Below, piece after piece: positions 1 to 28,772 of a DNA stretch of 32,000 bases; positions within the stretch are counted from its first letter, which is position 1, and every line of letters starts with the position of its first letter. Location: positions 3,090,001-3,122,000 of the forward strand of contig NZ_CP036280.1 in the NCBI RefSeq assembly GCF_007748075.1, given 5' to 3'. The notes under the pieces are model-generated. The model worked only from the letters and a program-made list of their open reading frames with translations, did not search any database and was not told the origin of the DNA. The position numbers were made by a program, and so were the translations under genes. This stretch comes from Mucisphaera calidilacus. GTDB lineage: Bacteria; Planctomycetota; Phycisphaerae; Phycisphaerales; Phycisphaeraceae.

Positions 1-648
1 GACGCACCCTTCTTCGCACGAAGCCCCAGCGAGTTCTGGCGACGATGGCACATCTCACTCTCCACCTGGCTACGCGACTACCTCTACATCCCGCTCGGCG
101 GCAACCGCGCCTCGCGATGGCTCACCTTCCGTAACCTCTCGCTCACCATGATCCTCGGCGGGCTCTGGCACGGCGCCGCATGGAACTTCGTCATCTGGGG
201 CGCCTACCACGGCGCGATCCTCTGCCTCTTCCGCGTCCTGCACCGAAGCCGACCGGCACCAGAACCCACCGACCCGAACCCCCAGCCGCCACGAACGCTC
301 CGGCACAACCTGGGCGTCGCGATCGGCATCGCCGCCTTCTTCCAGATGACCTGCTACGGCTGGCTGCTCTTCCGCGCAGAGTCCTTCGAACAGATCGTGC
401 GCTTCACCACCCTCATCATCACACCCGACGGATGGACGGCCCTCAGCATCCCGCGACCGCCGCTCAGCGCCCTCGCAGGACTCGTCTTCCTCGTCGCCTG
501 GGAAGGGCTGACCTACCGCCACGGCAACGCCTCCTTCTACCGCGACTGGCACCCGCTCCTCCGGGGCGCGCTCATCGGACTGCTGCTGATCCTCCTCGCC
601 ATGGGAATGTCGAATGAATCCGCCACCTTCATCTACTTCCAGTTCTAA
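1..648 (+). CDS. MBOAT-family membrane-bound O-acyltransferase (AlgI/DltB-like), C-terminal portion; 5' end lies outside the window
   Basis: Frame 1 is open from base 1. The translation DAPFFARSPSEFWRRWHISLSTWLRDYLYIPLGGNR...LGGLWHGAAWNFVIWGAYHG is the classic MBOAT core with the invariant His (RRWH). Hydrophobic C-terminal helices follow. Stop TAA at 646-648. Confidence 0.85.
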   Translation, partial: DAPFFARSPSEFWRRWHISLSTWLRDYLYIPLGGNRASRWLTFRNLSLTMILGGLWHGAAWNFVIWGAYHGAILCLFRVLHRSRPAPEPTDPNPQPPRTLRHNLGVAIGIAAFFQMTCYGWLLFRAESFEQIVRFTTLIITPDGWTALSIPRPPLSALAGLVFLVAWEGLTYRHGNASFYRDWHPLLRGALIGLLLILLAMGMSNESATFIYFQF

Positions 649-1762
649 GCGAGCACGAGGCATCAGACCACGCGACGCGCTCTACTGCCTCGCGGGCGCC
701 GTCCTCGTCGTGCTCGCCTTCGACCTCACCGTCGCCTCGCTCTTCTCCATACCCGCCGACCAGCCACTGCCACACGGCCCCCTCCAACGCTTCTTCAGCT
801 ACGGCCAGAGCAGCGAGTCCAAACTCCAACGCACCGTCGGCGAACCGGGCACCGAACCCGCCAGCATCGTCCGCGCCGGCTGGATCCCCACCGAACTCTA
901 CGAGCCTCCCGACAACTGGGACACCGCCCCACAACGCGTCGCCGTCTACGGCATGTCGTTCACCAACCACATCGCCAAAGAACTCCAGCACAACCACCCC
1001 GAACTCGCCGTCATGACCCGAGCCGGACCCGGCGCACCCTTCAACCACAGCTACGCCATGATCCGCGCCGACCCCCACGCCGCCCAGGCCTCATGGGTCT
1101 GCGTCGGCATCCTCTCCTCGTCTCTGCCCTACCTCCAGTCGATGTCAGGCATGAGCTACGCCCTCGAAAGCCCCACACCCTTCGCCTACCCGCGCTTCCA
1201 GGCTGTCGACGGCACCCTCCAACGCATCGACCCGGTCATCGACAACCTCGACACCTTCGCCCGGGCGTTCCGCAGCCGCGACGCCCTTTACCTGCAGCAC
1301 ATCGACCGACTCCGCCAGGAAGACGCCTTCTTCAACACCCTCTTCTACCACGCCTCCTTCCTCGACCGCTCCGCCTTCCTCAGCCTCATGCGCCGCGCCT
1401 ACGGCAAACGATGGATCGCCTCACGCAAAGCAGCCATCTACAACCCCCGCGACGGCTACCAGACCGACCACCCCGCCCTCGCCGCCGTCCCCCTCATGAT
1501 CGACAACCTCCACGAACAAACCACCGCGAACCAACAGCAACTCCTGATCATCCTCCTCCACGCCCGAGGCGAACCCGGCCACCTCGACGCCTGGCTCTCC
1601 CCCCACCTCGAGCAACGAGGCATCCCCACCCTCTCCACAACCACGCTCTTCGACGCGACCGACACGCTCAACTTCATCGGCGACGGCCACTACCAGCCCG
1701 AACTCGACCGCACCCTCGCCGAGGCGCTCTACGCCCTGATCAGCAACCCCTCACCCGACTGA
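614..1762 (+). CDS. Membrane-anchored hypothetical protein; candidate extracytoplasmic partner of the MBOAT (an SGNH/AlgJ-like role is speculative)
   Basis: 382-aa ORF that overlaps the MBOAT 3' end by 35 nt on the same strand. The N-terminus KRARGIRPRDALYCLAGAVLVVLAFDL is a basic stretch plus one TM helix. C/A-ending codon usage matches other + genes. Motifs VAVYGMSFTNH and GDGHY loosely resemble SGNH block I and a DxH block. Confidence 0.65.
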   Translation: MNPPPSSTSSSKRARGIRPRDALYCLAGAVLVVLAFDLTVASLFSIPADQPLPHGPLQRFFSYGQSSESKLQRTVGEPGTEPASIVRAGWIPTELYEPPDNWDTAPQRVAVYGMSFTNHIAKELQHNHPELAVMTRAGPGAPFNHSYAMIRADPHAAQASWVCVGILSSSLPYLQSMSGMSYALESPTPFAYPRFQAVDGTLQRIDPVIDNLDTFARAFRSRDALYLQHIDRLRQEDAFFNTLFYHASFLDRSAFLSLMRRAYGKRWIASRKAAIYNPRDGYQTDHPALAAVPLMIDNLHEQTTANQQQLLIILLHARGEPGHLDAWLSPHLEQRGIPTLSTTTLFDATDTLNFIGDGHYQPELDRTLAEALYALISNPSPD

Positions 1763-2836
1763 ACCGCCCCACTGAATCACCAGGTACGCGAAATACATCA
1801 GCACCAGCGGCGCTCCCATCCAACGCGAAAAACGCCCACGCCGGACCGCCATCGCGATGAACACCCTGAACAACACCAGCATCGCGATCAGCGTCGGCAG
1901 GTGAAGCTCCAAAAACACGTTCGGCCACGACGCCCCCGGCTCGGTCAAAGGCAGCGGAGCCGCCAACGCCGCAAAACCAATCACAAACAACACATTCAGC
2001 ACGTCCGCCCCGATCACGTTGCCCACCAGCAACTCCGGGTGACCCTTGCGGATCGACATCAGACCCACCACCAGCTCAGGCGTCGACGTCCCCATCGCCA
2101 CCAGCGTCCCCGCGATCACCACCTCCGGAACGCCCCAACGCATCGCCAGCTCGCTCGCCGACTGCACCATCACCTCGCCGCCCAGCACCACCATCGCCAG
2201 GCCCAGCAGCCCGAAAAACAACAACCACCACGCCGAATGACGGTGCACCTCGTGCCCGTGATGCTCGTCCGTCACCTGCGTGATGGCATGCAGCTCCGCC
2301 TGCTGACGCGCCCACACCACCGAACGACCCAGGTACGCCACCAGCAGAACCACAAACAAAACGCCCAGCGGACGCCCGAACGTCGCCGAGTCACCCTGCG
2401 CGTACCACAACGCGTAACACGCAACCGCCAGCAACGCACCCGAACCAAACTGCACCCAACCCTGACGCGAGAGCAGAAACCGATCCGCCGGCAACGCCGT
2501 CATCAGACAGCCAATCCCGAAGATCAAACCCGTGTCCGCGATGATCGAACCCACACCATTGCCCAACGCCAGACCCGCATTGCCCGACCACGCCGCCAGA
2601 ACCGAAACCGCCATCTCCGGGCTCGTCGTGCCCAGCGACACGATCGTCGCGCCCACAATGATCCTCGGCAGACCCAGCTGATACGCCGTCGCCGCCGCCG
2701 CCTCCACCAGCCAGTCCGCTCCGTAAACCAGCACCACCAACGCCACCACGATGAACAACAGCAGCAACCACTGCGGCTGATTCAAAAACCAGGCGTGTGG
2801 CAGCAACGAGGCAACAGTCACAGGGACGCAGGTCAT
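1751..2836 (-). CDS. Ca2+/cation antiporter (CaCA family, YrbG-like sodium/calcium exchanger)
   Basis: 361-aa polytopic membrane protein. It has the two CaCA alpha-repeat signatures GTTSPEMAVSV and GTSTPELVVGL, separated by a charged loop. Confidence 0.85.
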   Translation of the reverse strand: MTCVPVTVASLLPHAWFLNQPQWLLLLFIVVALVVLVYGADWLVEAAAATAYQLGLPRIIVGATIVSLGTTSPEMAVSVLAAWSGNAGLALGNGVGSIIADTGLIFGIGCLMTALPADRFLLSRQGWVQFGSGALLAVACYALWYAQGDSATFGRPLGVLFVVLLVAYLGRSVVWARQQAELHAITQVTDEHHGHEVHRHSAWWLLFFGLLGLAMVVLGGEVMVQSASELAMRWGVPEVVIAGTLVAMGTSTPELVVGLMSIRKGHPELLVGNVIGADVLNVLFVIGFAALAAPLPLTEPGASWPNVFLELHLPTLIAMLVLFRVFIAMAVRRGRFSRWMGAPLVLMYFAYLVIQWGGSVG

Positions 2837-2885
2837 AGGCGGGCGATGTTAGCAGAGATACCCCACGACCCGCCGCCGAACCACA

Positions 2886-3527
2886 CTACTCAAGCGTCGC
2901 CAGGTAATTCGTCAACGCATCGATCGAACCCGTCGTCAAACCATCGAAAGACGCAACAATCACCCCCTCACGATTCACCACCAGAAACCGCGACGAGTGC
3001 GTGATCGGCATCAACGTGTTCCCCGGGTCCTCGTCCAACGCAAGCTGGAAACCCTCCTCCACCAGCGGCCAGATCGTCGCGCGATCACCCGTCAGAAACG
3101 TCCACCGCTCCGGGTCCGCGTTGTAACGCCCCGCAAACGCCGTGATCACCTCAGGCGTGTCGTTCTCCGGATCCACCGAAATACTCACCAGCCTGATCTC
3201 TCCCATCCCCGCCGCGTCCAGCTGCCGCTGAAGACGACTCATGTTGAGCGTCATGATCGGGCACACCAGCTGACAACGCGTGAAAAAGAAATCCACCACC
3301 CAGATCTCACCCGCGAGCTCCTCCGACGAGAACGGCTCGCCGCTCGCGTCGGTCAGCGTAAACACCGGCGCAGGATGGTCGATCGCCGTCCCGTACGCCG
3401 GATCAATCGCCGGCCGCTCCTCCGCCCGGAACCGCGCCGCCGTCGTCAACGCGATCATGCTCCCCGCAATCGTCAGCATCACGAATCCCGCCGCCAGAAA
3501 CAGCCGCTGCGTCGTCCGCGCATTCAT
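2886..3527 (-). CDS. SCO1/SenC-family thioredoxin-fold copper chaperone
   Basis: N-terminal TM anchor, the CxxxC motif in VVDFFFTRCQLVCP, and a distal conserved His (ITHSSRFLVVN). The ATG at 3527 overlaps the upstream permease stop (ATGA). Confidence 0.8.
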   Translation of the reverse strand: MNARTTQRLFLAAGFVMLTIAGSMIALTTAARFRAEERPAIDPAYGTAIDHPAPVFTLTDASGEPFSSEELAGEIWVVDFFFTRCQLVCPIMTLNMSRLQRQLDAAGMGEIRLVSISVDPENDTPEVITAFAGRYNADPERWTFLTGDRATIWPLVEEGFQLALDEDPGNTLMPITHSSRFLVVNREGVIVASFDGLTTGSIDALTNYLATLE

Positions 3528-4417
3528 GAAACAGGCCTCACCGCACGTGTCGCAAAAACAACCGCCGCCACCGCCGCGACCAGCAGCAACGGCAACGCCA
3601 AAAACAGAGGCGCCGCAGCCGCGGGCGGCGAACCCTCAAACATCGCCCACGTCAGCACCGCGTGCCCGTACGTCATCGGATTCAGATAACCCAGAACACG
3701 CAGCCAGATCGGCGCCAGCTCGAGCGGGAACACCGCACCCGACAAAAACCACATCGGCATCAGAATCAGATTCATCAACGCGTGGAAACCCGCCGTCGAC
3801 TTCATCGGCCACGCCAACATCAGACCCAGACCCGCCAACCCCGCCGAGCACAGAGCAATCACCCCCAACGCCGCCAGCCACCACACCACGCTGATCCCAC
3901 CGCCCACAAACGGCCACGCCAACAGGAACAGCCCGCCCTGGAGCGTCGCGATCCCCGCCGCACCGATCATCTTCCCCACCGCCACCGCCGAGCCCGGGGC
4001 CGGCGAAACCAGAACCCCCTGCAAAAACCCCTCACGACGGTCCTCGATCACCGTGATCGTCGAGAAAACCGCCGTGAACAACACGATCATCAGCACCGTG
4101 CCCGGGAAAAAATAGGCCAGATAACCCACCGTCGCCTCGTCCGCCGTGTTCAACGCCACCGCTCGGTTCAAACCCGACCCTAGCAGCAGCCAGAACAGCA
4201 CCGGAGTCGCCAACGCACCAATGATCCGTGTTCGCTGGCGGCTGAAACGCACAAACTCACGCAACGCGATCCCGAAACAGGCCCTCGGCCACAACAACGC
4301 AGGCGAAGCCTCGCGCGGGGGAGAAGAATCACGGCTGATCGTGCTGGACAGGTCGGCTGACGTCATGGGACTTATCCTAGCCGGACAGCTTTGGCTGAGC
4401 GCCGTCGGCAGATCCAA
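3524..4417 (-). CDS. ABC-2 type transporter permease (no cognate ATPase gene adjacent)
   Basis: Six-TM pattern and an ABC-2-like N-terminus [31 protein letters not shown]. The ORF-track start at 4417 is TTG. An ATG at 4366 preceded by AGGA is a more likely start. Confidence 0.7.
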
Positions 4418-4464
4418 CCGATCGCTACAATTCGCCTTTAACCCGCCACGAAGGATGTGCCCAC

Positions 4465-5100
4465 ATGAGTCTGATCCCGATGGTCATCGAGAAAACCGGT
4501 CGCGGCGAACGCGCCTACGACATCTACTCCCGACTCCTCAAAGACCGGATCGTCTTCTTACCCGGTCCCGTCACCGACGAATCGGCCAACCTGATCATCG
4601 CTCAGCTGCTCTTCCTCTCCAACGAAGACGCCAAGTCCGACATCCACTTCTACATCAACTCCCCAGGCGGATCCGTCTCCGCCGGCCTCGGCATCTACGA
4701 CACCATGCAGTTCATCCGGCCGCAGGTCGCCACCTACTGCATCGGCGTCGCCGCCTCCATGGGCGCCGTCCTCATGATGGCCGGCACCGAAGGCAAACGA
4801 CACATGCTCCCCAACGGACGCGTCCTGCTCCACCAGCCGCTCATGGGGGGCGTCATGCAGGGACAGGCCACCGACCTCTCCATCCAGGCCAAGGAAATGC
4901 TCAAGACCCGCGAACGCCTCTACCAGATCATGAGCAACCACACCGGCAAAGACTACGACACCATCGCCAAAGACTGCGAACGCGACTACTGGCTCGACGC
5001 CGAAGAAGCCGTGACCTATGGCGTCGCCGACGCCATCCTCAAACACCTGCCGGAAAACGTCGCCGGCGATGACAAATCCAAAAACGACGCCGACGACTGA
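4465..5100 (+). CDS. clpP: ATP-dependent Clp protease proteolytic subunit
   Basis: Full-length ClpP: [24 protein letters not shown], catalytic Ser in GVAASMGA, His in LLHQPLMGG, Asp in [21 protein letters not shown] start with AAGGA 9 nt upstream. Confidence 0.95.
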
Positions 5101-5120
5101 ACCTGAAAGGGGTTAGCCAC

Positions 5121-5717
5121 ATGCGGGGACCGCTGCGTGATCGTCTCGGACTGATCCTCCTCGCCGCCGCGCTGGCCGTCACCGGCTGCAGCGCCAGCAG
5201 GGAAAACTCCAAGCTCCGACGCGAACGCGCCGAACGCCAGGACACCATCGCAAAACTCACCGCCGACCTCGAAGCACGCGAGGCCGAGATCGACGCGCTC
5301 CGACAACAACTCGGCCGCGCCTCCAAGGTCGAAGGCATCGACCTCCCCATCCTCACCAGCCTCCGCCTCGGCCGACTCTCCGGACTCGTCGATACCGATG
5401 GCGACGGCACCCGCGACCTGCTCCGCCTCTACGTCACACCCCGGGACGACCGCGGCCGCTTCCGCGCCTTCAGCGGAACCGCCCGACTCACCGCCGTCGA
5501 CATGACCGCTCAGGACGCGCCCCGCGTCATCATCGAAACCGACTTCGACGGCCCCGCCGTCGACAACGCCTACCGCAGCGGATTCGCCGGCACCCACTAC
5601 ACCTTCGAAACGCCCATCGACACCACCGACCTCCAACAACTCACCGTCTCCCTCGTCGTCACCGACGCCGAGTCAGGCATCCAACTCAACCTGACCGAAA
5701 CCTACCCCGTCCGCTGA
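5121..5717 (+). CDS. Lipoprotein of unknown function (coiled-coil N-terminus, beta-rich C-terminus)
   Basis: Signal peptide with lipobox LAVTG|C. Lies 20 nt downstream of clpP. Codon usage matches other + genes. Confidence 0.7.
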   Translation: MRGPLRDRLGLILLAAALAVTGCSASRENSKLRRERAERQDTIAKLTADLEAREAEIDALRQQLGRASKVEGIDLPILTSLRLGRLSGLVDTDGDGTRDLLRLYVTPRDDRGRFRAFSGTARLTAVDMTAQDAPRVIIETDFDGPAVDNAYRSGFAGTHYTFETPIDTTDLQQLTVSLVVTDAESGIQLNLTETYPVR

Positions 5718-7300
5718 GACGCCAGCAACCGCATCAGCCCCAGCGGCCAGCTCGCCAACGCGTACACCGCCATCCCCACGCCAACCGCGCCCGCCACACG
5801 CACCAGCGCCGACGCCTCGGCCAGCCGCTGATCCAGCAGCCACACCACCACGCCCATCACAACACTCGCCACCACCACCCGCGTCGCCGTACCCGCCATC
5901 CCCAGACCGCCCCGCCGCCGAAGCACCAGCGCAAGCCCCAACGCCTGAACCACCGCCGCCGCCGCCGTCGACCACGCCAATCCCACCGCGCCCAGCGGCC
6001 AGATCAGCGTCAGATTCAGCACCAGGTTCAAAGGCACCGTCGCCGCCATCACACGGAGCGGCCACGTCGGACGGTCCAACGCATAACACGCCCGCGTCAA
6101 CACGTGCGTCAGCGAATAAGCCCACACCGCACTGCCGTACGCCAGCAGCAGCAACGCCACCCGCGCCGTCGCCGCACCATCAAACGCACCTCGCTCGTAG
6201 ATCAACGCCACCAGCGGCTCCGCCACCAGCGCCAGCCCCACACTCGCCGGCAGCGTCAGCCACAGACTCAAACCCAGACCCCGACGCAGCACGCCGCCAA
6301 ACGCCCGCGGATCCGACGCCGCCCGCGCCAACGCCGGGAACGCCGCCGTCGCCACCGCGATCCCGAACACACCCAGCGGGAACTGATACAGCCGCTGCGA
6401 CCACTGCAACGCCGCCACCGACCCCGTCTCGATCGGGTAAGCCACGCCACCAGGCAGCCACCCCACCGTCGTCACGCCCGCGTCAGGCGGCGAGAGCACG
6501 AACGCGATCACGTGATCCAACAACGCATTGACCTGAAACACCGCCAACCCCCCCGCCATCGGCAGCATCCGCCACGCCATCGAACCCACCTCCGGACCCG
6601 ACGCCGCCGACGGCCGCGCCACCAGCCCCCGACGCGATGACGCCACCACCATCCACAACAACTGCAACACACCCGCAACCAGCACGCTCAACGCCAACGC
6701 AAACGCAACACCTGAAGCACCGAACGACAACGCCCCCGCCAGCAACGCCGCCGAGATCATCGCCGCGTTCAACAGAATCGGTGCCGCCGCCGCCGGCGCA
6801 AACACACCACGCGCCTGCAACAACCCGCCCAGCATCGCCACCAGACACACCAGCGGCATGTAAGGCAGCATCCACGCCGCCAGACGCAACGCCTCCGAAG
6901 CCCGCGACGACGCCGCCACCCACGAACCCGCAATCAGCAACGCCACGACCCCCACCGCCGCGATCACCGCCGTCACGCCCGCCGTCCACGCCAGCACCGA
7001 ACCCGCAAAACCCGCCGCCCGCCGCGCATCCAGACCGTACAGCCGCGTGTACGCCGGGATGAACGCCGAGGTCAACGCACCCTCACCAAACAGCCTGCGA
7101 AACAGATTCGGCACCAGGAACGCCAGAAAAAAGATGTCCGCCCAGACCGACAGCCCCAGCGTCGCAGCCAGCACCGCGTCTCGCACCAGACCCGTAAAAC
7201 GCGACACCAGCGTCAGACCACTCACCACCACCGTCGCGCGACCGACACCCCCGCCGTCGTCGGCCCTGCACTCACTCGCCTTGTCGTCTGGTTCCGTCAT
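5702..7300 (-). CDS. murJ: MurJ/MviN-family (MOP superfamily) lipid-linked glycan flippase
   Basis: Signature LVSRFTGLVRDAVLAATLGLSVWADIFFLAFLVPNLFRRLFGEGALTSAFIPAY and about 14 TM segments. The ORF-track start at 7375 is GTG. The ATG at 7300 lies 2 nt after the VanZ-like stop (TGAACATG), so I take it as the start. Confidence 0.85.
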   Translation of the reverse strand: MTEPDDKASECRADDGGGVGRATVVVSGLTLVSRFTGLVRDAVLAATLGLSVWADIFFLAFLVPNLFRRLFGEGALTSAFIPAYTRLYGLDARRAAGFAGSVLAWTAGVTAVIAAVGVVALLIAGSWVAASSRASEALRLAAWMLPYMPLVCLVAMLGGLLQARGVFAPAAAAPILLNAAMISAALLAGALSFGASGVAFALALSVLVAGVLQLLWMVVASSRRGLVARPSAASGPEVGSMAWRMLPMAGGLAVFQVNALLDHVIAFVLSPPDAGVTTVGWLPGGVAYPIETGSVAALQWSQRLYQFPLGVFGIAVATAAFPALARAASDPRAFGGVLRRGLGLSLWLTLPASVGLALVAEPLVALIYERGAFDGAATARVALLLLAYGSAVWAYSLTHVLTRACYALDRPTWPLRVMAATVPLNLVLNLTLIWPLGAVGLAWSTAAAAVVQALGLALVLRRRGGLGMAGTATRVVVASVVMGVVVWLLDQRLAEASALVRVAGAVGVGMAVYALASWPLGLMRLLASQRTG

Positions 7301-7302
7301 GT

Positions 7303-8160
7303 TCAGCGATCGTGCGTCCGGGTCCCGATGCCAACACGACGCAGCAACGGCTGCGCCGCCGCCAGAAGCGCCCACGCCATCAACGCCGCCAGCAGACCCA
7401 GCTCATGCCAGTAAACATCGGCCGCCTCGAAGCCACGACCTGAACCTCGCTGCGCCCACTCGATCAGCGGTGCCGACGCCGCCATCACCACCACCGTCAG
7501 CAGAAAACTCAGCCGCGGACGCGTGATCCCCGCCGGCATCGCCGTCGCCAGCAGAACCGTCCACGCCGCGCCCACATACAGGTGCCCCGGCTTGTCCGCC
7601 CCGTACCGACTCAGACCCACCGCCTCCGCCAGCCGGATCAGGTAGGGATTCGCCGCCGGAAGCAGAAACAGCAAGATCAGCCCCGGCGTAATCACCAGGT
7701 TCAGCACACGACTCACCCACGCCAGCACGTCCCGACGCGGGATCTGATGCCTCGGCCGACTGATCAGAAACGCCGTCAGAACGCCGATCGTGTTCGCCAC
7801 CGCGTCCTCCACCCCCGTGTACCGATTCACGAACTGCTGCGTGTACTCATCCACCAACGCGAACACCACCACCGCCAGCGTCGTCACCAGACGGCTGCCG
7901 TGACTCCCCAGCAACCGCACACCAAACCCGCAGTGCAACGCCAGCCAACCCAGAAAACCGAACGCGAACACGTGAACCAGCTTGTCCGTCTGAAACACAG
8001 GCGTCGCCGACGGCAACGCCAGACCCGGCCAGTGCGTCGCCAGCACCAGCACTGGCGCATACACCACCAGCAACGGCCGCGCCGCACGATCCGCAAAACG
8101 CTCGAAAGGCGTACGGCCGCGTCGCAGCCGCTCAACCCCGTCTCGCCCCGGCCCCGTCAA
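7303..8160 (-). CDS. VanZ-like family integral membrane protein (apparently two VanZ-like halves)
   Basis: DKLVHVFAFGFLGW...ALVDEYTQQFVNRYTGVEDAVANTIGV is VanZ-like. A second similar half contains PLIEWAQRGSGRGFEAADVYWHELG. The TTG start at 8160 overlaps the upstream GT4 stop (TTGA). Confidence 0.65.
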   Translation of the reverse strand: MTGPGRDGVERLRRGRTPFERFADRAARPLLVVYAPVLVLATHWPGLALPSATPVFQTDKLVHVFAFGFLGWLALHCGFGVRLLGSHGSRLVTTLAVVVFALVDEYTQQFVNRYTGVEDAVANTIGVLTAFLISRPRHQIPRRDVLAWVSRVLNLVITPGLILLFLLPAANPYLIRLAEAVGLSRYGADKPGHLYVGAAWTVLLATAMPAGITRPRLSFLLTVVVMAASAPLIEWAQRGSGRGFEAADVYWHELGLLAALMAWALLAAAQPLLRRVGIGTRTHDR

Positions 8161-9386: not shown

Positions 9387-9515
9387 CAGAGGGTCCGCAG
9401 CAGGCAGGGGAGCGACAGGGTACCCGAGCACCCCGAGTGAATCATCGGTCAGCTCACCGTTATCGGATCATGAGTGATCCCTATAAGGCCCTCCGCAACA
9501 CCCGTCTGCGTTACC

Positions 9516-10922: not shown

Positions 10923-10949
10923 ACCACACCAACCCTGAGGAGCGTGGAT

Positions 10950-16483: not shown

Positions 16484-16489
16484 ACCCAC

Positions 16490-16520: not shown

Positions 16521-16549
16521 GTCATCAGGAGGACAGCCTCACGTGCCCC

Positions 16550-18535: not shown

Positions 18536-18604
18536 GCGAACTCTCCTTTACGTGTTCGGACCTGTGAGATCACCACCCTGACGCAGGCGTGACTCGATTC
18601 GAGC

Positions 18605-18633
18605 AGAATAAAACGTTCATGCCTAGTTTGCAA
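18605..18633 (-). promoter_or_regulatory. Candidate sigma70-type promoter for amtB-glnK
   Basis: The minus strand reads TTGCAA-17 nt-TATTCT, about 70 nt upstream of the amtB ATG. The spacer contains one arm (TAGGCAT) of a 7-bp inverted repeat. By-eye prediction only. Confidence 0.3.
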
Positions 18634-18656
18634 GCGAGTGATTTCAAAAACGCTCA

Positions 18657-19073: not shown

Positions 19074-19201
19074 CAGACGAACCCGACCCGCGAAAATCAA
19101 CCCGCATCCCGACCTTCCGCGTGCGAAACCATACAGTTCAGGTCACAATGTCCCCTGAACAAACCCCCTCCTGTGTCAGACCATCGAATCGAGGTGTGCA
19201 C

Positions 19202-21931: not shown

Positions 21932-23453
21932 CACCACCCGAATCACCCGCCGCCTCATCCGCCTGCTCCTCAGGCAGCTCGATCCGCCACGCCAACGCGT
22001 AATCCTGCAACTCAGGCTCGTACGTCAGCGGGAACGGACGACGCGTGATCTCCAGCCGGTACACGCCCGGCGGCAACGCGTGAATGTACAGGTGCTCCAC
22101 GTTGTCCAGACGCGAACGGCTCTCCGCAAACACCGTCGGCTCGGCAGCCACACCCCCCTCGTCCGGCAACGCCACCAGACGCATGTCCAGGTTCGACAAC
22201 AACGGCCGAGGCAGCCAGACCGGCTTCGGCGTGAACGGACGACCAATCACCTCTCCCTTGATCTGACGATTCCACACCAGCATCAACGACACCGGACCCA
22301 GCAACCGGTTCGCCTTGATCGTGATGCTCCGCGTCTCACCCGTCGCCAGCGACTCGAACGCCCACCCGTAACGACGTCGAATCCTCGGCAGCTCGTCATC
22401 CTCACCCGCACCCTCCAGCGACGGCAGCGCCAGACGCGGGTTCTGCATGATCTTCAACGCGTTGTCGATGTTCAGCGTCCCCGCACCAAAACGCTCCGCC
22501 AGCGGCCGCCCCGGCTGAGCACGCCAGTCCAGCGACTTGGTCGCACCCGCCATCAGCACCGCCTTGACCACCTCGCTCCGACCCCCCGCCTCACCATCCG
22601 CCTCCAGACGGTCCGCCGCCTCCAGCAACGACGCCGCTGCAGCAGCCACCGCGGGCGTCGCGAACGACGTCTGACCGCCCGGCGCCACCAGGTCCGGCTT
22701 GCAACGACCAATCCCGTCCACGGGCGTCCGCCCCCCCGAACTCCGGCCGTTCGTCGTCCCCACCGCGATCACGTTGTACGCCGACGCCAACGCCGGCGGA
22801 ATCTCCGAGTCCGGCCCGTTGTTCACGCCCACCGCCATCACCACGTCACGCGTGTCAATCTGATAATCCACGCGACGCAACACCTGCTCGATCCCACGCG
22901 TCTCCTGCGTGATCCACGAATGACTGAACACCCGGATCGGGTCGTCCTCCAGCGGCGGCTCATCCGTGCCCACACGCAGATACGCCTCGCCGATCCACGC
23001 CATGCTCGAAAAACAATGAACAATCCGGATCCCCGGAGCCAACCCGCCCCGACCATAAATCACACCCGCCGTCGCCGTCGCGTGATCAAAAGGCGTCGCA
23101 GGACCCGATCTCGGCACAAATCGAACGTAATCAAACACCGGCTTTCGACCGTCCGGCAGGTACTGCGTCGCCCCGCCCTCCACGTGACCCGCGATGATGT
23201 CACGGCCCACCGGAAGATCGCGACCCAGACGAAAACGAGCCTTGTCCAGCCCGATCGCCTGCACCGTCGTCGCTCGCGGACCCGCCGGACGAAGCGGCTC
23301 GCTCTCACCGCCCGCCCCCGGACCGGGCACCGGCCGAACACGATTGTCCACCCGGCCCTGCTGACCAAACACCGCACCCGGACCCCACGCCGCCATACCG
23401 ACCAGCACGAGCAGGACTAAACTGATGATCGCTGGCCGAGGAAGGCTGAACAT
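21921..23453 (-). CDS. Secreted subtilisin-like serine peptidase (S8 family) with a C-terminal beta-rich domain
   Basis: The ATG at 23453 starts the signal peptide MFSLPRPAIISLVLLVLVGMAAWGPGAVFG. His motif FDHATATAGVIYG, Asn in GVNNGP, Ser motif APGGQTSFATPAVAAAAASLL. The catalytic Asp motif is not clear by eye. Confidence 0.8.
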   Translation of the reverse strand: MFSLPRPAIISLVLLVLVGMAAWGPGAVFGQQGRVDNRVRPVPGPGAGGESEPLRPAGPRATTVQAIGLDKARFRLGRDLPVGRDIIAGHVEGGATQYLPDGRKPVFDYVRFVPRSGPATPFDHATATAGVIYGRGGLAPGIRIVHCFSSMAWIGEAYLRVGTDEPPLEDDPIRVFSHSWITQETRGIEQVLRRVDYQIDTRDVVMAVGVNNGPDSEIPPALASAYNVIAVGTTNGRSSGGRTPVDGIGRCKPDLVAPGGQTSFATPAVAAAAASLLEAADRLEADGEAGGRSEVVKAVLMAGATKSLDWRAQPGRPLAERFGAGTLNIDNALKIMQNPRLALPSLEGAGEDDELPRIRRRYGWAFESLATGETRSITIKANRLLGPVSLMLVWNRQIKGEVIGRPFTPKPVWLPRPLLSNLDMRLVALPDEGGVAAEPTVFAESRSRLDNVEHLYIHALPPGVYRLEITRRPFPLTYEPELQDYALAWRIELPEEQADEAAGDSGGASR

Positions 23454-23506
23454 GCCGACGATGCTATCGGGACGAAGTGCATCACACTTCGCACAGGAAC
23501 CCGCTG

Positions 23507-24664
23507 ATGGCAGAAAACGACTCTGACGACGCGACATTATCGGCTCCGCTACGCGTGCTCCACCTCACCGCGGGCTCCGACGCGGGCGGCATCAGCCGAT
23601 ACCTCCACGTCCTCTGCCAGGAACTCAAACAACGCGGACACCAGCCCGTCGTCGCCGGCGAGGTCGGCATCTGGCACGACCTCTTTACGAACGCAACCTT
23701 CCCCTGGATCGAAGCACCCCTCAAATCCGGGCCCATCGGGCTCTGGCGCGCCCGCGCAACCATCGCACGCGGACTCCGAAACGCCGGCTTCGACCAGCAG
23801 CCCCCCGTCGATATCATCCACGCCCACTACCGAAAGTCCTCGCTCGTCGGACGATGGCTCGCTCGACGATGGCGCATCCCCCTCGTCTACACACTCCACC
23901 TCACCGGCATCCCCCTCGACTGGGCCTCCAACCTCCTCAGCGACTGGGGCGACACCACCCACGTCCCCTCCTCCCAGGCACAGCAGTGGCTCATCGACGA
24001 GGCACAACTCGACCCCGAACGCATCCAACGCATACCCCACGGCATCCACGCCGAACGATTCCCCGAAGTCGACGACCAGAAACGCACCACAGCACGCGCC
24101 CTACGCGAACTCAATGACGCCTCACCCGTCGTCGCCTTCGTCAACCGCTTCGACACCCCCAAAAACGACGACTGGGTCATCGACCTCGCCGACCTCAGCC
24201 GCGACGTCGCCCCCAACGCCCTCTTCCTCATGCAGGGCGAAGGACCCCACGAACCCATCCTCCGACGCGAAATCGTCGACCGACGACTCCAGAACCGCGT
24301 ACGAATCCTGCCCTACGGCGACCCCGTCCCCACCTACCACGCCGCCGACCTCGTCATCATCCCCTCAGCACTCGAAGGCTTCTCCTACGTCACCACCGAG
24401 GCCATGTCCGCTGGATGCGCCGTCCTCCGAACACGGACCGCCGGCTGGGAAGAACACATCATCGAAGGCGTCAACGGACGATCCTGCCCCATCGACCGCG
24501 AAGCCTTCCTCGCCGCCGGTCTCGAACTGCTCCAACACCCCGAGCAGCTCCGCGACATGGGACACGCCGCCGCCGCTCACGTCCGCGAACACCTCACCAT
24601 CGACCGACAACTCTCCGCCACCGTCGAACTCTACCGAAAGGTCATCGCCCAACACCGCCACTGA
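23507..24664 (+). CDS. Glycosyltransferase family 4
   Basis: LRVLHLTAGSDAGGISRYLHVLCQELKQRGH N-terminus and VIIPSALEGFSYVTTEAMSAGCAVLRT C-terminal motif. Start is the ATG at 23507 or the GTG at 23477. Confidence 0.85.
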   Translation: MAENDSDDATLSAPLRVLHLTAGSDAGGISRYLHVLCQELKQRGHQPVVAGEVGIWHDLFTNATFPWIEAPLKSGPIGLWRARATIARGLRNAGFDQQPPVDIIHAHYRKSSLVGRWLARRWRIPLVYTLHLTGIPLDWASNLLSDWGDTTHVPSSQAQQWLIDEAQLDPERIQRIPHGIHAERFPEVDDQKRTTARALRELNDASPVVAFVNRFDTPKNDDWVIDLADLSRDVAPNALFLMQGEGPHEPILRREIVDRRLQNRVRILPYGDPVPTYHAADLVIIPSALEGFSYVTTEAMSAGCAVLRTRTAGWEEHIIEGVNGRSCPIDREAFLAAGLELLQHPEQLRDMGHAAAAHVREHLTIDRQLSATVELYRKVIAQHRH

Positions 24665-24719: not shown

Positions 24720-26096
24720 ATGCCGACCATGACCACCAAGCACACACGTTTCACGCTCTTGACCCTCGTGATAACACTCGCAGCCCTGCTGCCCGGACCG
24801 ACCGCGGCACAGGACACACCCCCCGACCTCCCCTTCCTCGCACTCGTCATCAACGAGCAGGCCGAACTCCGCGCCGGACCCGGAAAAGCCTACTACACCG
24901 TCGGACGCATCAACCGAAACGACGTCGTCGAAGTCCACGACGCCATGCTCGGCTGGTACAAAATCGCCGCGCCCGAAGGCGTCTACAGCTACATCTCCGT
25001 CATGCACGTCAAGGCCAGCGGTGACGGCACCATAGGCGTCGTCGATGACGACCGCGCCACCGTCAAGGCCGCCAGCGAAAAAGGACCCGGCTGGAGCTTC
25101 AAGTCGCAGGCCACCCTCACACGTGGCACCGAGGTCACCATCGTCGGCGAAGAAGGCAGCTTCTACCGCATCGTCCCGCCCGACGACGCCCGCGTCTTCG
25201 TCGAACGCGCCGCACTAAGACCCATCAGCGACGCCGAACTCGAAGCACTCCGACAAGCCGACGAACAACCCGTGCCCGTCATCACCCAACCCGAACCCCA
25301 GCCACAGCCCCAGCAGCAACCCCAGCCCGAACAGCAACAAGCACAACGCGGACCCCTCATCCCGCCACCCGCACCCGCCACCGACAACGAACAGCCCGAG
25401 CAAACCCCCGCCGAGCCCGCACCCGTCTCCGAACCCCAGGCCGTCGAGCAGTCCATGCCCGTCGAACCCGCCACCGAAGAAGAGTCCGCCTGGCCCGCCA
25501 TCGGTAAGGACACCGTCAGCGTCGCGACCGAGCCCCAGAGCAACACCCTCGAAGCCGTCGAGCAACGCAACCGACCCAACTTCGGCCTCCCCCTCGAAGA
25601 AATGCCCATCGACCAGATGCAGGCCGACTACGAAACCCTCCGCGACGACGACTCCCTCACCGCGCAGGACCAGCAGATCGTCGAGATCCGCCTCATCGCC
25701 ATCGACCGCAACCGCCAGCTCCGCGACCGACTCCGCGCCGAGCAGGAGGCACAGACCGCACAAACCCCCCAGATCGTCGTCGAAGAAACACCCGCCGAAG
25801 ACGCCGTACCCGTCGTCGACCGCTCCGAGAACGCCGCGCCCATCGAGGACTACGCCTTCGTCGGACGTCTCGTCCAGTCCTCTCTCTACGACGGACAGCA
25901 GGGACGACCCTCGCTCCTCCGACTCGTCGACCCCACCACCCGACGGACCCTTGGCTACATCGTCACGCGATCCATCAGCGACCGCCGTGCCATCTCCTCG
26001 CTCGTCGGGATCCTTGGCGAACGCACCCGCGACGAAGACCTCGGCATCATGATCATCGAACCCACACAGATCGACCTGCTCTCCGTCAGGCCCTGA
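24720..26096 (+). CDS. Secreted protein with two bacterial SH3 (SH3b) domains, an acidic P/Q/E-rich linker and a C-terminal domain of unknown function
   Basis: AGGAG lies 8 nt before the ATG. Signal peptide FTLLTLVITLAALLPGPTAAQ. SH3b-like AELRAGPGKAYYTVGRINRNDVVEVHDAMLGWYKIAAP and ATVKAASEKG...GTEVTIVGEEGSFYRIVPP. Linker QPEPQPQPQQQPQPEQQQAQ. Confidence 0.8.
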   Translation: MPTMTTKHTRFTLLTLVITLAALLPGPTAAQDTPPDLPFLALVINEQAELRAGPGKAYYTVGRINRNDVVEVHDAMLGWYKIAAPEGVYSYISVMHVKASGDGTIGVVDDDRATVKAASEKGPGWSFKSQATLTRGTEVTIVGEEGSFYRIVPPDDARVFVERAALRPISDAELEALRQADEQPVPVITQPEPQPQPQQQPQPEQQQAQRGPLIPPPAPATDNEQPEQTPAEPAPVSEPQAVEQSMPVEPATEEESAWPAIGKDTVSVATEPQSNTLEAVEQRNRPNFGLPLEEMPIDQMQADYETLRDDDSLTAQDQQIVEIRLIAIDRNRQLRDRLRAEQEAQTAQTPQIVVEETPAEDAVPVVDRSENAAPIEDYAFVGRLVQSSLYDGQQGRPSLLRLVDPTTRRTLGYIVTRSISDRRAISSLVGILGERTRDEDLGIMIIEPTQIDLLSVRP

Positions 26097-26284: not shown

Positions 26285-26809
26285 ATGACCTCACCCCAAG
26301 ACCCCTCCGACGCCGGCCAGCCCAGACAAGGCATGCGCATCGGCGAAATCCTCCTCGAACGCGGGTTGCTCTCCGAGCAGCAGGTCTTCGAAATCACCCA
26401 GGCCCAGAAAAAACAGCCCCTGCCCTTCGGCGTCCTCGCCGAACGCATGTTCGACGTCACACTCGAAAGCATCGAGCAGGCATGGATCGAGCAGTACCAC
26501 CGCTTCACCGGAACACTCGACCTCAGCACCGTCAGCTTCGACACCGAAGCCCTCAAGCTCATCAACCGACGACAGGCATGGCAGTTCGAGATCCTCCCCG
26601 TTCGCTTCGAGGCCGACGGACAACTCCTCATCGCCGCCTCGCGGAGCCGACTCGCACGCGCCGTCACCTTCGCCGCACGACGCATCGACCAGGAAGTCTT
26701 CCTACGCATCTCCGAGTCCGACCAGCTCCGCGCCTTCCTCAGACAGCACTTCCCCATGCCCGAGGTCAGCGAAGAGCTTCTGGAACAGGCTCGCCGACTG
26801 GCCGGTTGA
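26285..26809 (+). CDS. Stand-alone T2SSE_N / MshEN-like domain protein (candidate c-di-GMP receptor)
   Basis: 174 aa. RIGEILLERGLLSEQQVFEITQAQ fits the 24-residue MshEN motif. A 5-aa spacer (KKQPL) and a degenerate second copy follow. The C-terminal half resembles the GspE N1 domain (ILPVRFEADGQLLIAASRS). There is no ATPase domain. Confidence 0.75.
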   Translation: MTSPQDPSDAGQPRQGMRIGEILLERGLLSEQQVFEITQAQKKQPLPFGVLAERMFDVTLESIEQAWIEQYHRFTGTLDLSTVSFDTEALKLINRRQAWQFEILPVRFEADGQLLIAASRSRLARAVTFAARRIDQEVFLRISESDQLRAFLRQHFPMPEVSEELLEQARRLAG

Positions 26810-28037
26810 CCGGCTCCCGGAACGTCACCAGCAACAACAACGCGCTGCACAGCGTCAGGCAAACCCCAAGCAGAAACACACGCGCGTAATCCCCGCCGCT
26901 GATGCTCCCCGCGATCCACGGACCAAACGTCCGACCGATCCCGTACACCATCGGCGCAAACACACCCATCATCGACGTCCGGTCGCTTACCCCCGCCAGA
27001 CGATTCAGATAAACCGGGGCCACCACCACGATCAGCATGATCGCCGGGCCGTGAAACACCTGCGACAGAATCGCCGCCCAAACCTCCGGGACGCTGTAAA
27101 GCAGCAGCAGCCGCGCACACATCGCCAACGCACCAATCACCACGATCGCCTTCAGACCAATCCGCCTCTCGATCCACCCGTAATAGTGCGTGAACACGAT
27201 CTCAGGCAGAACGCCGAACGACGCGATCATCCCCACCCACCGCGCCTCCACACCCAGCTGCTGAAGATGCAGCGGATAGAACGTGAAATAACCCGACATC
27301 GACAACGAAAACAGCAGCATCGCCAGGCAATACCACCGCGCACCCGGCGACAGCAGCTTCTGCAACGCCGTCCACGTCGGGAACTTCGCCAACCCGCCCT
27401 CCTGACGCTCGTGACGAACACGCGGAACCGCCTGCAGGTTCACAAGCGTGACCACCGCCAGCACGATCCCGAAGTAAAGCGTCCGCGAAAGCGTCGCCCC
27501 CTCGCCCATCATCAGCACCGGGACGATCAGCGAAGGCATCACGAACCCATACGCACCCATCACACGAATGTGGTGAAACGGAACCTCCGCCACACCCGAA
27601 GCACGCTCGTGCTGGATCCGGAAGTGCAACGCATCACTCACCGTCATCGCAGGCGTCACGCAGATCGCCAGCAAACCCGTCGCCAACGCGGCCAGCAGAA
27701 ACGCGCTCGCACCCAGCAACAACACAAACGACAAACCGATCCCCAGGAAAATCCCCGCCAGAATCGTCCGCGGCTGAACATGAAGATCCGCCATCGCACC
27801 CAGCACCGGCGGCGACACGAAAATCGACACCCCGAACATCGCCATCATCATCCCGATCTGAGCGTCATTCAGACCGATATCCGACAGGATCAGCGGCAGG
27901 TAAGGCTGAACAATCCCGAAGATCGCAAATCCAAACAGATAGTGGCGCTGCAGCGGGCTCAAGGGATCGACAGTGTAGACGCCTTCACGCACCCGAGCGT
28001 CCGGATACAGGATTATCCGGCATCCGCGCTCCAGCAC
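26766..28037 (-). CDS. MFS transporter (MFS_1_like / HcaT-like)
   Basis: 12-TM pattern. N-terminus LQRHYLFGFAIFGIVQPYLPLILSDIGLNDAQIGMMMAMFGVSIFVSPPVLGAMADL. The start at 28037 is GTG and uncertain. Confidence 0.8.
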   Translation of the reverse strand: MLERGCRIILYPDARVREGVYTVDPLSPLQRHYLFGFAIFGIVQPYLPLILSDIGLNDAQIGMMMAMFGVSIFVSPPVLGAMADLHVQPRTILAGIFLGIGLSFVLLLGASAFLLAALATGLLAICVTPAMTVSDALHFRIQHERASGVAEVPFHHIRVMGAYGFVMPSLIVPVLMMGEGATLSRTLYFGIVLAVVTLVNLQAVPRVRHERQEGGLAKFPTWTALQKLLSPGARWYCLAMLLFSLSMSGYFTFYPLHLQQLGVEARWVGMIASFGVLPEIVFTHYYGWIERRIGLKAIVVIGALAMCARLLLLYSVPEVWAAILSQVFHGPAIMLIVVVAPVYLNRLAGVSDRTSMMGVFAPMVYGIGRTFGPWIAGSISGGDYARVFLLGVCLTLCSALLLLVTFREPVNRPVGEPVPEALR

Positions 28038-28193
28038 GCATAAGCGCCCGAGTTACTGGACCCCGCATTCCCGACTTGACCGTCATTTTTGCGCTCGTCG
28101 GCCTCAATCCACCCCCTCCGATTCCCGATGTTCTGGGTGTCGCCGGCGTATTTCCCCGGCGGCACGGAGTTACCCGGAGAAAGGCCGCCAACC

Positions 28194-28772
28194 ATGCCGA
28201 AACAAAAAGACATCCTCACCACGGGCGAAGTCGCCAAGATCTGCAACGTCGCCCCGCGAACCGTTAGCAAGTGGTTCGATTCGGGTCAGCTCAAGGGATA
28301 CCGCATCCCCGGCTCCAAAGACCGACGAATCCCCCTCACCGCGCTCATCAAGTTCATGAAACAGCACCAGATCCCGCTCGACGGACTCCAGTCCGGCAAG
28401 ACACGCGTCCTGCTCGTCGACGAAGTATCCGAAACCGTCGAAGTCCTCAAGAAAATGCTCGTCGAACAGGCCGGCTACGAGGTCGACCTCGCTCACTCCG
28501 GCTTCTCCGCAGGCGTCGAGTGCGAGAAGTTCCGACCCCACGTCATCCTCATCGACCTTCACCTGGGCGACGTCTCAGGCGAAGACGTCCTCAAACTCGT
28601 CCGCGAAAACCCCGACCTCCAGATGAGCAAGGTCATCGCCGTCAGCGGCAAGCTCACCGAAGGACAGGCCTCCGCGCTCACCACCGCCGGATTCGACGGC
28701 TTCCTCCGCAAACCGTTCCACGTCAAGCAGGTCATCGACATCGTCGAAGAGGCCACCGCGCTGGTCTACTAA
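28194..28772 (+). CDS. Response regulator with reversed architecture: N-terminal excisionase/MerR-type HTH (HTH_17-like) + C-terminal receiver domain
   Basis: The ATG at 28194 is preceded by GGAGAAAGG. HTH: LTTGEVAKICNVAPRTVSKWFDSGQLKGYRIPGSKDRRIP. REC: RVLLVDE, VILIDLHLGD (phospho-Asp), AVSGK, RKPF. Confidence 0.85.
   Translation: MPKQKDILTTGEVAKICNVAPRTVSKWFDSGQLKGYRIPGSKDRRIPLTALIKFMKQHQIPLDGLQSGKTRVLLVDEVSETVEVLKKMLVEQAGYEVDLAHSGFSAGVECEKFRPHVILIDLHLGDVSGEDVLKLVRENPDLQMSKVIAVSGKLTEGQASALTTAGFDGFLRKPFHVKQVIDIVEEATALVY

Follow-up and report, generated by a model that had tools for sequence, protein, structure and literature searches.

An Exceptionally Strong Strand Asymmetry, Probably Linked to Replication, in the Planctomycete Mucisphaera calidilacus and Its Close Relatives

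Introduction

Replication-driven, strand-specific codon usage was reportedly described by McInerney (1998) and Lafay (1999). Such "separate" codon usage is known from Borrelia burgdorferi, Treponema pallidum, Chlamydia trachomatis/muridarum, and Lawsonia intracellularis (PMC2089121, PMC2671203). Its strength can be expressed as (G-C+T-A)/N, which is approximately 0.1 in Borrelia and Treponema, 0.07 in Chlamydia, and less than 0.02 in Escherichia coli (PMC2089121), and GC skews at third codon positions (GC3) of approximately +0.27 and -0.19 can be computed for C. muridarum from the published Table 1 (PMC2089121). Here, we describe a strand asymmetry of this kind in a stretch of 32,000 nucleotides of Mucisphaera calidilacus (assembly GCF_007748075.1, contig NZ_CP036280.1, positions 3,090,001 to 3,122,000; the whole stretch is referred to as the window, and positions are counted from its first letter). 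The initial annotation of the window, which was made from the sequence alone, had called the size of the asymmetry unusual, and the calculation agrees: (C-G+A-T)/N is 0.258, and the window asymmetry is approximately 2.5 times stronger than that of the classic bacterial record holders. In our judgment, it is probable that the window belongs to a lineage with exceptionally strong replication-associated strand asymmetry, and that the end of the skewed segment at 28.8 kb is the inversion breakpoint of a deaminase-ParA-atpD block.

With regard to GC skew in bacteria at large, SkewDB gives a typical G excess of approximately 2.5% of bases (PMC8941118). Phylum means of the replication-associated G-skew component lie between 0.001 and 0.096 (PMC2031905), the value for the window being 0.27. 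The mean composition bias of Planctomycetes is low (0.023; PMC4613354), and a GC skew index of 0.815 has been given for Clostridium perfringens (PMC2684130).

M. calidilacus Pan265, a planctomycete of the class Phycisphaerae, is free-living and aerobic; its genome of 3.49 Mb has a G+C content of 63.9% and a coding density of 91.7%, and includes no plasmid (PMC8882080). The word "skew" is absent from both the species description (PMC8882080) and a comparative paper on Phycisphaerae (PMC11266412), and full-text literature searches returned no report of such a skew for Phycisphaerae. The kind of phenomenon, a replication-linked strand asymmetry, is already known; its magnitude and its setting appear to be unreported.

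Results

Strand Composition of the Window

The + strand of positions 1-28,772 contains 11727 C, 6775 G, 6375 A, and 3895 T (G+C 64.3%), which gives a GC skew of -0.268 and an AT skew of +0.241, with z-scores of 36 against G=C and 24 against A=T. On the - strand, G/C is 11727/6775 and T/A is 6375/3895, i.e., the excess of G over C and that of T over A share one strand, and the G excess amounts to 17% of all bases. Across all 1-kb windows of positions 1-29,000, the GC skew ranges from -0.128 to -0.376 and is never positive; its level is flat and ungraded over the 28 kb. These exact counts bear out the initial annotation, which had proposed a C+A (plus) versus G+T (minus) asymmetry over 28.8 kb. 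Its hand counts of G/C in four sampled lines (14/23, 13/33, 16/24, and 14/24) are exact, and the GC skew is far from the level of <0.05 that it had named as speaking against its claim. The last skewed gene stops at 28,772, and the GC skew is +0.049 across 28,773-32,000, the G+C content being nearly equal on either side of the boundary (64.3% vs. 64.5%).

Codon Usage Follows the DNA Strand

In the skewed segment, 24 genes were called from open reading frames (ORFs), homologs, and Pfam. Their orientation is balanced, with 13 + genes (4586 aa) and 11 - genes (4581 aa), and there is no gene-strand bias. Third positions are occupied by C (67.8%), A (15.0%), G (14.8%), and T (2.5%) in + genes (4525 codons), and by G (58.4%), C (20.7%), T (19.2%), and A (1.7%) in - genes (4469 codons), which is far from equal usage (chi-square 3356); the GC3 skews of the window are +0.48 and -0.64. 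Four-fold degenerate sites are more extreme still, with C 74.8, A 13.7, G 8.7, and T 2.8% in + genes, and G 68.2, T 18.9, C 10.4, and A 2.5% on the coding strand of - genes.

When GC skew at four-fold sites (GC4) is read on the + strand throughout, it lies between -0.46 and -0.90 in 23 of the 24 genes, the exception being amt (-0.23), and it amounts to -0.79 for + genes and -0.74 for - genes. It can be split into a DNA-strand component of approximately -0.76 and a gene-orientation component of approximately -0.03. For all codon positions together, + and - genes give + strand GC skews of -0.291 and -0.252, respectively (strand component -0.27, orientation component -0.02). The strand component declines from approximately -0.76 at four-fold sites to approximately -0.10 at position 1 and -0.03 at position 2. 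The bias depends on the strand and is independent of gene orientation; synonymous choice is set by DNA strand rather than by gene, as had been claimed, and the sign of the bias tracks the DNA strand and not the direction of transcription.

Individual codon families show the same division. The counts in + vs. - genes are 177/64 vs. 6/188 for GAA/GAG, 55/40 vs. 0/55 for AAA/AAG, and 337/36 vs. 30/482 for GCC/GCG; among leucine codons, CTC is used 406 times in + genes, and CTG and TTG 334 and 144 times in - genes. Of the final 38 sense codons of murJ, 31 have G in third position, four C, three T, and none A, which matches the earlier tally exactly. Two paralogous WcaF-like domains on opposite strands use complementary third bases: at 79 identical residues, the third bases (+ copy/- copy) are C/G in 28, C/C in 16, C/T in 11, and A/G in nine cases. 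The motif AGTHDY, for example, is written GCC GGA ACC CAC GAC TAC on the + strand and GCG GGG ACG CAT GAT TAC on the - strand, as first noted.

The features of the skewed part of the window are listed below; GC4 and AT4 (the AT skew at four-fold sites) refer to the + strand unless the coding strand is named.

1-28,837, no strand assigned: segment of extreme strand asymmetry, + strand C/A-rich and - strand G/T-rich; strand component of GC4 about -0.76
1-648, + strand: MBOAT-type acyltransferase, C-terminal part, the gene continuing past the window's left end; GC4 -0.46, AT4 +0.92
614-1762, + strand: hypothetical protein without Pfam match; GC4 -0.75
1751-2836, - strand: Na+/Ca2+ exchanger family protein (its L089 ortholog annotated PF01699); GC4 -0.76, coding strand G-rich
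2886-3527, - strand: SCO1/SenC-type protein; GC4 -0.90
3524-4417, - strand: ABC-2 transporter permease; GC4 -0.75
4465-5100, + strand: ClpP protease; GC4 -0.71
5121-5717, + strand: putative lipoprotein; GC4 -0.78
5702-7300, - strand: MurJ lipid II flippase, 100% identical to the MurJ protein of M. calidilacus; GC4 -0.83
7303-8160, - strand: VanZ-like protein; GC4 -0.86
8157-9431, - strand: glycosyltransferase (GT4); GC4 -0.77
9474-10,922, + strand: O-antigen ligase-like membrane protein; GC4 -0.79
10,944-11,858, + strand: secreted protein with a weak hyaluronidase-family (GH56) match; GC4 -0.85
11,855-12,979, - strand: glycosyltransferase; GC4 -0.82
13,084-14,244, + strand: glycosyltransferase; GC4 -0.83
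14,241-15,800, - strand: GT2 glycosyltransferase fused to a hexapeptide (WcaF-like) acetyltransferase domain, paralog copy 1; GC4 -0.71, AGTHDY at 14,448-14,465 with G/T-ending codons
15,866-16,483, + strand: WcaF-like hexapeptide acetyltransferase, paralog copy 2; GC4 -0.86, AGTHDY at 16,256-16,273 with C/A-ending codons
16,550-16,888, - strand: P-II (GlnB) nitrogen regulator with reduced skew; coding-strand four-fold sites G 33, C 19, T 9, A 2
16,991-18,535, - strand: ammonium transporter Amt, the sole weakly skewed gene; GC4 -0.23, coding-strand C 88 and G 140
19,121-21,931, + strand: large HEAT-repeat-like secreted protein; GC4 -0.87
21,921-23,537, - strand: subtilisin-type peptidase S8; GC4 -0.78
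23,477-24,664, + strand: glycosyltransferase (GT4); GC4 -0.81
24,720-26,096, + strand: SH3_3-domain protein; GC4 -0.81
26,285-26,809, + strand: MshEN-domain protein; GC4 -0.83
26,766-28,037, - strand: MFS transporter; GC4 -0.80
28,194-28,772, + strand: response regulator with HTH_17 and receiver domains (Pfam matches), 100% identical to its M. calidilacus counterpart, final gene of the skewed segment; GC4 -0.60

Scans of the window returned no tRNA or Rfam match. A horizontally acquired island was considered and rejected, given the equal G+C content on both sides, the absence of tRNA and Rfam matches, and the housekeeping and envelope genes that are syntenic in relatives. An assembly chimera or sequencing artefact was likewise rejected: the proteins are conserved, and the trait recurs in independent assemblies (isolate, ENA, NCBI, and Logan).

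Antisense ORFs

The + strand carries long, stop-free antisense ORFs of 330-800 aa that are rich in Arg, Pro, His, Thr, and Gln (e.g., 8229-9440, 13,470-15,869, 22,080-23,420, and 27,051-28,043). The start of each long shadow ORF is offset by a multiple of three from the stop of the underlying - gene (e.g., 8229/8157, 1901/1751, 12,020/11,855, 22,080/21,921, and 27,051/26,766), so that the first codon base of the shadow ORF faces the third base of the sense codon. Since this third base is A in only 1.7% of codons, stop codons, which begin with T, are almost absent from the shadow frame, and CNN and ANN codons dominate. The strand bias therefore explains the shadow ORFs, as had been supposed from the outset. 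Such ORFs are a hazard for gene callers in this lineage.

Comparison with Described Systems

The window resembles Borrelia, Treponema, Chlamydia, and Lawsonia in that G exceeds C and T exceeds A on one strand, third positions are affected most strongly, and genes fall into two strand-based codon classes. Proteins encoded on the G/T strand are in addition shifted toward Val and Gly, and a kindred amino-acid effect is known from Borrelia. The differences are those of degree and of organism. The keto excess is 0.26 in the window (0.31 in the related locus L089, introduced below), unlike the values of about 0.1 and 0.07 in the spirochaetes and Chlamydia, and the GC3 skews of +0.48/-0.64 contrast with those of about +0.27/-0.19 in C. 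muridarum. Whereas the classic cases are host-associated and mostly low-GC, reduced genomes, M. calidilacus is a free-living heterotroph with a 3.5-Mb genome of 64% G+C. Owing to this high G+C content, its skew is mainly an exchange of G and C, and the G-rich strand has a purine at 71-78% of its four-fold sites.

As in ordinary bacterial GC skew (SkewDB, PMC8941118; GC skew index, PMC2684130), the asymmetry is long-range and independent of gene orientation, changes sign along the chromosome in relatives, and bears the scars of rearrangements. However, the G excess is 17% in the window, unlike the typical value of about 2.5% in SkewDB. Earlier strong cases (Clostridium perfringens, Firmicutes, and Fusobacteria) owe much to gene-strand bias, of which the window has none.

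In vertebrate mitochondrial DNA, one strand is rich in A and C and the other in G and T, with a four-fold GC skew similar to that of the window, and codon usage and amino-acid content depend on the strand there as they do here. Mitochondrial skew, however, has a single sign and is graded with exposure time, whereas in the present case a single related chromosome carries both signs, and the window keeps a flat level across 28 kb.

Related Genomes and Recoding of Orthologs

Loci were taken from three close relatives, namely a 3.25-Mb contig of Mucisphaera sp. (loci L081 and L089), GCA_040222855.1 (L082), and GCA_040222295.1 (L090). Proteins from the loci of Mucisphaera sp. and GCA_040222855.1 share 50-91% identity with their counterparts in the window. 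A further locus, L083, is 100% identical to L082, and the overlap of L082 and L090 is confined to an unskewed zone. In all three related genomes, the asymmetry equals or surpasses that of the window. L089 has a GC skew of +0.35 across 21.6 kb, GC4 lies between +0.73 and +0.94 in 18 of 19 genes, and (G-C+T-A)/N, derived from base composition, is approximately 0.31. Four-fold sites of the S8 peptidase gene in L082 comprise 262 C vs. 5 G, and the four-fold GC skew reaches 0.96 in one relative.

Orthologs in opposite strand states have been almost wholly recoded. The S8 gene of the window and its oppositely placed ortholog in L082 share only 6% of four-fold sites, with window/L081/L082 patterns of GCC (55) and GGC (32). 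The effect extends to the proteins: in 3826 aligned residues from 11 ortholog pairs in opposite strand states (L089 vs. L090), the G/T-strand copies are enriched in Val (10.95 vs. 7.27%) and Gly (10.17 vs. 7.89%) and depleted in Thr (4.86 vs. 7.03%), Ile (3.71 vs. 5.78%), and Asn (1.33 vs. 2.51%). The replacements are directional, I>V occurring 57 times vs. seven in reverse and T>V 25 times vs. none.

A comparison with close relatives had been proposed together with the initial annotation, and its outcome is that three related genomes share the asymmetry and others are near zero. Among 48 metagenomic loci whose response regulator is 58-78% identical, |GC skew| never exceeded 0.19 in 3-kb windows; skew was near zero in five further Phycisphaeraceae loci, and the orthologous murJ locus of Algisphaera agarilytica has no strand component but merely an ordinary coding-strand preference for C. 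Intermediate strand components of approximately 0.4-0.6 were found in remoter Phycisphaerales (L003, L010, L004, and part of L092), three of which (L003, L010, and L004) also emerged as skewed in a ParA-based scan of genome collections whose best matches were 49-54% identical and non-syntenic. The trait is restricted to certain lineages.

In L004 (positions 1-19,496, from a metagenome-assembled genome (MAG) of a remoter member of Phycisphaerales), GC4 changes sharply from - to + at about 4.5 kb and drifts toward zero after about 15 kb. This change was rejected as a clue to the origin, as it sits among gatCA, a hypothetical gene, and dapA, and not at dnaA; it may be either an origin or the scar of a rearrangement.

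Link to Replication

On the single contig of Mucisphaera sp., the murJ block (L089, 1.006-1.028 Mb, reversed) has a GC skew of +0.35, and the ParA side of L081 (1.797-1.806 Mb, reversed) has GC4 values of -0.28 to -0.80. Opposite signs at full strength on one chromosome point to replication. So does the behavior of genes under rearrangement, which keep their strand state: the distance between the murJ and response-regulator blocks is 790 kb in Mucisphaera sp. and approximately 10 kb in the window, and in both genomes the G-rich strand encodes MurJ and the C-rich strand the response regulator. In the window, the murJ-clpP-glycosyltransferase block and the block from S8 to the response regulator are contiguous. 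We know of no process besides replication that confers strand identity over such distances and then reverses it, and on the strength of these relatives, we infer that replication is the cause.

The transition between the two signs can be followed in a composite of two conspecific MAGs. L090 (reversed) and L082 overlap by 7,470 bp at 97.6% identity and together tile the gene order of the window from the CaCA exchanger to the deaminase; the composite joins L090:1-21,632 (reversed) to L082:7,471-20,579. Its GC4 values are as follows.

OrnDC to ABC2: about +0.9
ClpP to GT4: about +0.6
Glycosyltransferase cluster: about 0
Hexapeptide transferase and MFS: about -0.45
ParA to S8: -0.8 to -0.96

GC4 thus passes from + to - as a sigmoid across approximately 25 kb, centered on the glycosyltransferase cluster, and L081 contains the right-hand half of such a gradient. 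The shape looks like a cumulative-skew maximum which, if the leading strand is G-rich, marks a terminus that is diffuse or drifting. A search for dif-like XerCD sites with the published bacterial consensus found none matching at 21 or more of 28 positions in the window and the transition zones of the relatives, except for one weak match in L003.

The Boundary at 28.8 kb and the Inverted Block

The boundary is neither an origin nor a terminus but an inversion breakpoint. In BLASTN comparisons, window positions 28,158-28,837 are collinear with L081, whereas 28,901-30,192 and 30,508-31,965 match it in inverted orientation, and the same holds for L082. The left breakpoint therefore falls within 28,838-28,900, exactly at the change in skew. 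The inverted block spans 28,901 to at least 31,965. The features at and beyond the boundary are as follows.

28,773-28,900, no strand assigned: convergent intergenic region with the inversion breakpoint (28,838-28,900); collinear with L081 to 28,837, inverted match from 28,901
28,901-29,389, - strand: CDA-fold nucleoside/nucleotide deaminase in the inverted block; TadA-like at 77 bits, below the cut-off of 150
29,386-30,393, - strand: ParA/MinD-family ATPase (family match) in the inverted block
30,523-31,965, + strand: F0F1 ATP synthase beta subunit (atpD) in the inverted block; TIGR01039 at 784 bits (cut-off 463), isolated from other atp genes

These three genes have ordinary codon usage with more C than G on their own coding strands and a strand component of only about +0.1. 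Their coding-strand GC4 values, compared with those of the relatives, are as follows.

ParA: window -0.30, L081 -0.68, L082 -0.82
Deaminase: window -0.27, L081 -0.69, L082 -0.77
atpD: window -0.13, L081 +0.02, L082 +0.39

The ParA and deaminase genes retain the C-rich coding strand of their orthologs in weakened form, and atpD has shifted from G/T-rich toward C/A-rich; all three have completed 30-37% of the shift toward the equilibrium composition of the left segment. The block is indeed inverted, and its intermediate composition indicates that it feels the same strand pressure as its neighbors. At sites with C in both relatives on the strand that is now G-rich, the window has C in 112, G in 55, T in 20, and A in six cases, so that the dominant net change is C to G; this three-taxon parsimony gives net fluxes only, the silent sites being saturated (four-fold identity 42-69%).

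Several further observations concern the breakpoint region. The terminator arm of the response regulator (CAGGCCACCC / GGGTGGCCTG) is present three times in 28,801-28,885. A complete terminator hairpin with a T-rich tail occupies 28,806-28,829, and an extra inverted copy of the 3' arm and tail is found at 28,866-28,885, 26 nt off (I1; 20 nt, 90% complementary). This extra arm may be a footprint of the rearrangement. The gene trio itself, an isolated atpD divergent from a ParA-family ATPase gene followed by the CDA-fold deaminase gene, is conserved in three genomes (window 28,901-31,965; L081 10,773-13,961; L082 12,134-15,206) and lies at or beside a skew transition in all of them. Several nested inversions share end points around the MFS, response regulator, atpD, ParA, and deaminase genes in the three genomes.

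Expressed Genes and Intergenic DNA

Where the G-rich strand is the coding strand, genes with probably high expression have a reduced skew. This was seen for amt (-0.23), glnB, and atpD, as well as for ClpP in L090 (-0.47) and P-II in L089; ClpP is fully skewed where its coding strand is the C-rich one. The pattern suggests that translational selection for C-ending codons opposes the strand pressure.

Intergenic DNA of the window has a GC skew of -0.20 over 1.8 kb (e.g., 18,536-19,120), in the same direction as the genes. Pooled intergenic DNA from strongly skewed parts of the relatives (4.0 kb) has a GC skew of 0.23 and a TA skew of 0.25. The intergenic regions are short and rich in signals and hairpins, and their G+C content is 56-61% vs. 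approximately 80% at four-fold sites.

Discussion

Proposed Mechanism

Under the replication-linked reading, G and T would build up on one parental strand, and C and A on the other. If other bacteria are a guide, the leading strand would be the one rich in G and T, here the - strand, in which case forks would cross the window from right to left. The pressure would act on the strands of the duplex, with + genes drifting to NNC/NNA and - genes to NNG/NNT, and first positions and amino acids would shift too. An inverted segment would begin with the wrong skew and slowly re-equilibrate, and the deaminase-ParA-atpD block would be about one third of the way back.

We infer that the pressure is mutational. 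The bias has the classical direction, with G and T sharing one strand. Such a bias is usually ascribed to the deamination of C and A in the lagging-strand template while it is transiently single-stranded (reportedly Frank and Lobry 1999, cited in PMC8941118). Candidate pressures here would be such deamination of C and A on transiently single-stranded DNA together with a strand-biased transversion process. A transversion flux of this kind must be postulated; alternatively, the purine excess could come from transitions combined with a strong AT-to-GC fixation bias acting through T>G. It is conceivable, and we put it forward tentatively, that the Mucisphaera clade acquired a lineage-specific change in replication or repair that drives a near-complete segregation of G and C between strands at silent sites, strand-biased transversions included. 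The change might be a lost base-excision function, a strand-specific bias in translesion synthesis or the bypass of abasic sites, or the use of different polymerases on the two strands.

Several points weigh against this replication-linked, mutational reading. Intergenic GC skew is about 0.2-0.3 and TA skew about 0.25, vs. 0.75-0.9 and 0.65-0.75 at four-fold sites, and this weaker intergenic skew is not expected of a purely mutational pressure unless the short intergenic regions are heavily constrained. Transitions cannot alter the purine/pyrimidine ratio, so that C>T and A>G deamination alone is insufficient to account for the high purine content of four-fold sites. The evidence for a link to replication comes from the relatives and not from M. 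calidilacus itself; the opposite signs in Mucisphaera sp. are only 0.8 Mb apart, beside a terminus-type change, which implies very unequal replichores or further rearranged segments. Gene orientation, being balanced, offers no independent marker of the leading strand, and the window stops short of the inversion's right end.

Alternative Explanations

A bias that tracks the direction of transcription or the expression level, through transcription-coupled deamination or repair, might be read from the deviating genes (amt at -0.23, glnB, and atpD), but the + strand sign is identical for 13 + and 11 - genes and the orientation component is only -0.02 to -0.03. The per-gene skew table rules out a transcription-associated strand bias, and we give this explanation practically no credence. 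A further question is whether the boundary at 28.8 kb could be a true replichore boundary of the origin type (- to +). The polarity, negative and then slightly positive, would fit, a ParA-family gene adjoins the boundary, and the skew transitions of the relatives cluster around these genes. However, the strand component on the right side is approximately +0.1 and not +0.8, ParA and the deaminase have moved off C-rich and atpD toward C-rich, the direction expected under the same pressure as in the left segment, and the boundary coincides within 65 bp with a demonstrable inversion breakpoint. With one mismatch allowed and an E. coli-type box assumed, DnaA-box-like sites number 2 in 32 kb vs. 1.7 expected, with no cluster at the boundary and none near it, and the intergenic region is 65% G+C without an AT-rich unwinding element. 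An oriC was rejected here for want of DnaA-box enrichment, an AT-rich element, and a mirrored right side, and we regard a replichore boundary at this position as unlikely.

Exposure of single strands outside bidirectional replication, by mitochondrion-like strand displacement, unidirectional replication, or repeated single-strand transfer, is highly improbable. It would account for the A+C vs. G+T pattern and the four-fold GC skew of 0.8-0.96, which resemble vertebrate mitochondrial DNA, and for the skew gradients of approximately 10 kb in L081, L082, and L090. However, both signs are present at full strength on the chromosome of a congener, which is not a prediction of a one-strand model, the affected genes are ordinary housekeeping ones (clpP, murJ, amt, and ruvB) rather than those of a mobile element, and the skew is flat over the 28 kb of the window. 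Strand displacement of the mitochondrial type was rejected on the flat level of the window and on the two signs of one related chromosome, the latter seen in relatives only. A small share of probability belongs to strand-dependent selection or biased fixation on coding sequence in place of mutation, either because G-rich non-template strands and R-loops would be disfavored in head-on genes or through strand-directed repair or gene-conversion bias. The mirror symmetry of the bias on the two strands (-0.79 and +0.74) speaks against it, as conflict avoidance predicts an effect in one class only; moreover, intergenic DNA is skewed in the same direction, genes with probably high expression are less skewed on the G-rich coding strand, where translational selection would oppose rather than cause the bias, and the spill-over into amino-acid replacements is that expected of an undirected pressure. 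On the other hand, four-fold sites (skew 0.75-0.9, approximately 80% G+C) stand well apart from intergenic DNA (0.2-0.3, 56-61% G+C), and the net change in the inverted block consists chiefly of C to G (55 vs. 20 to T), an atypical class of spontaneous mutation. The intergenic gap is unexplained and keeps a component of selection or biased fixation alive beside the preferred reading of a replication-linked mutational pressure.

Implications

The cause of bacterial GC skew is disputed between deamination of single-stranded DNA, polymerase asymmetry, repair, and selection, and the signal usually amounts to a few percent. Here it is 17% of all bases and approximately 80-95% of the possible range at silent sites, with no gene-strand confounder, and the organism is an axenic, aerobic, mesophilic marine isolate; Pan265 should be suited to an unusually clean strand-resolved mutation spectrum. 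The trait is recent and lineage-restricted, and the gene gain or loss behind it can be sought by comparison with unskewed relatives, e.g., Algisphaera. In addition, so strong a bias turns every inversion into a dated scar and could reveal termination zones in uncultured genomes. The 6% silent-site identity of orthologs, the shifted amino acids, and the antisense ORFs matter for gene calling, for codon-based detection of horizontal transfer, and for phylogenetics. If a lineage-specific change in the replication or repair machinery is indeed responsible, no stronger replication-strand asymmetry would be known from any free-living cellular organism, and this one would be at hand in the cultured strain Pan265.

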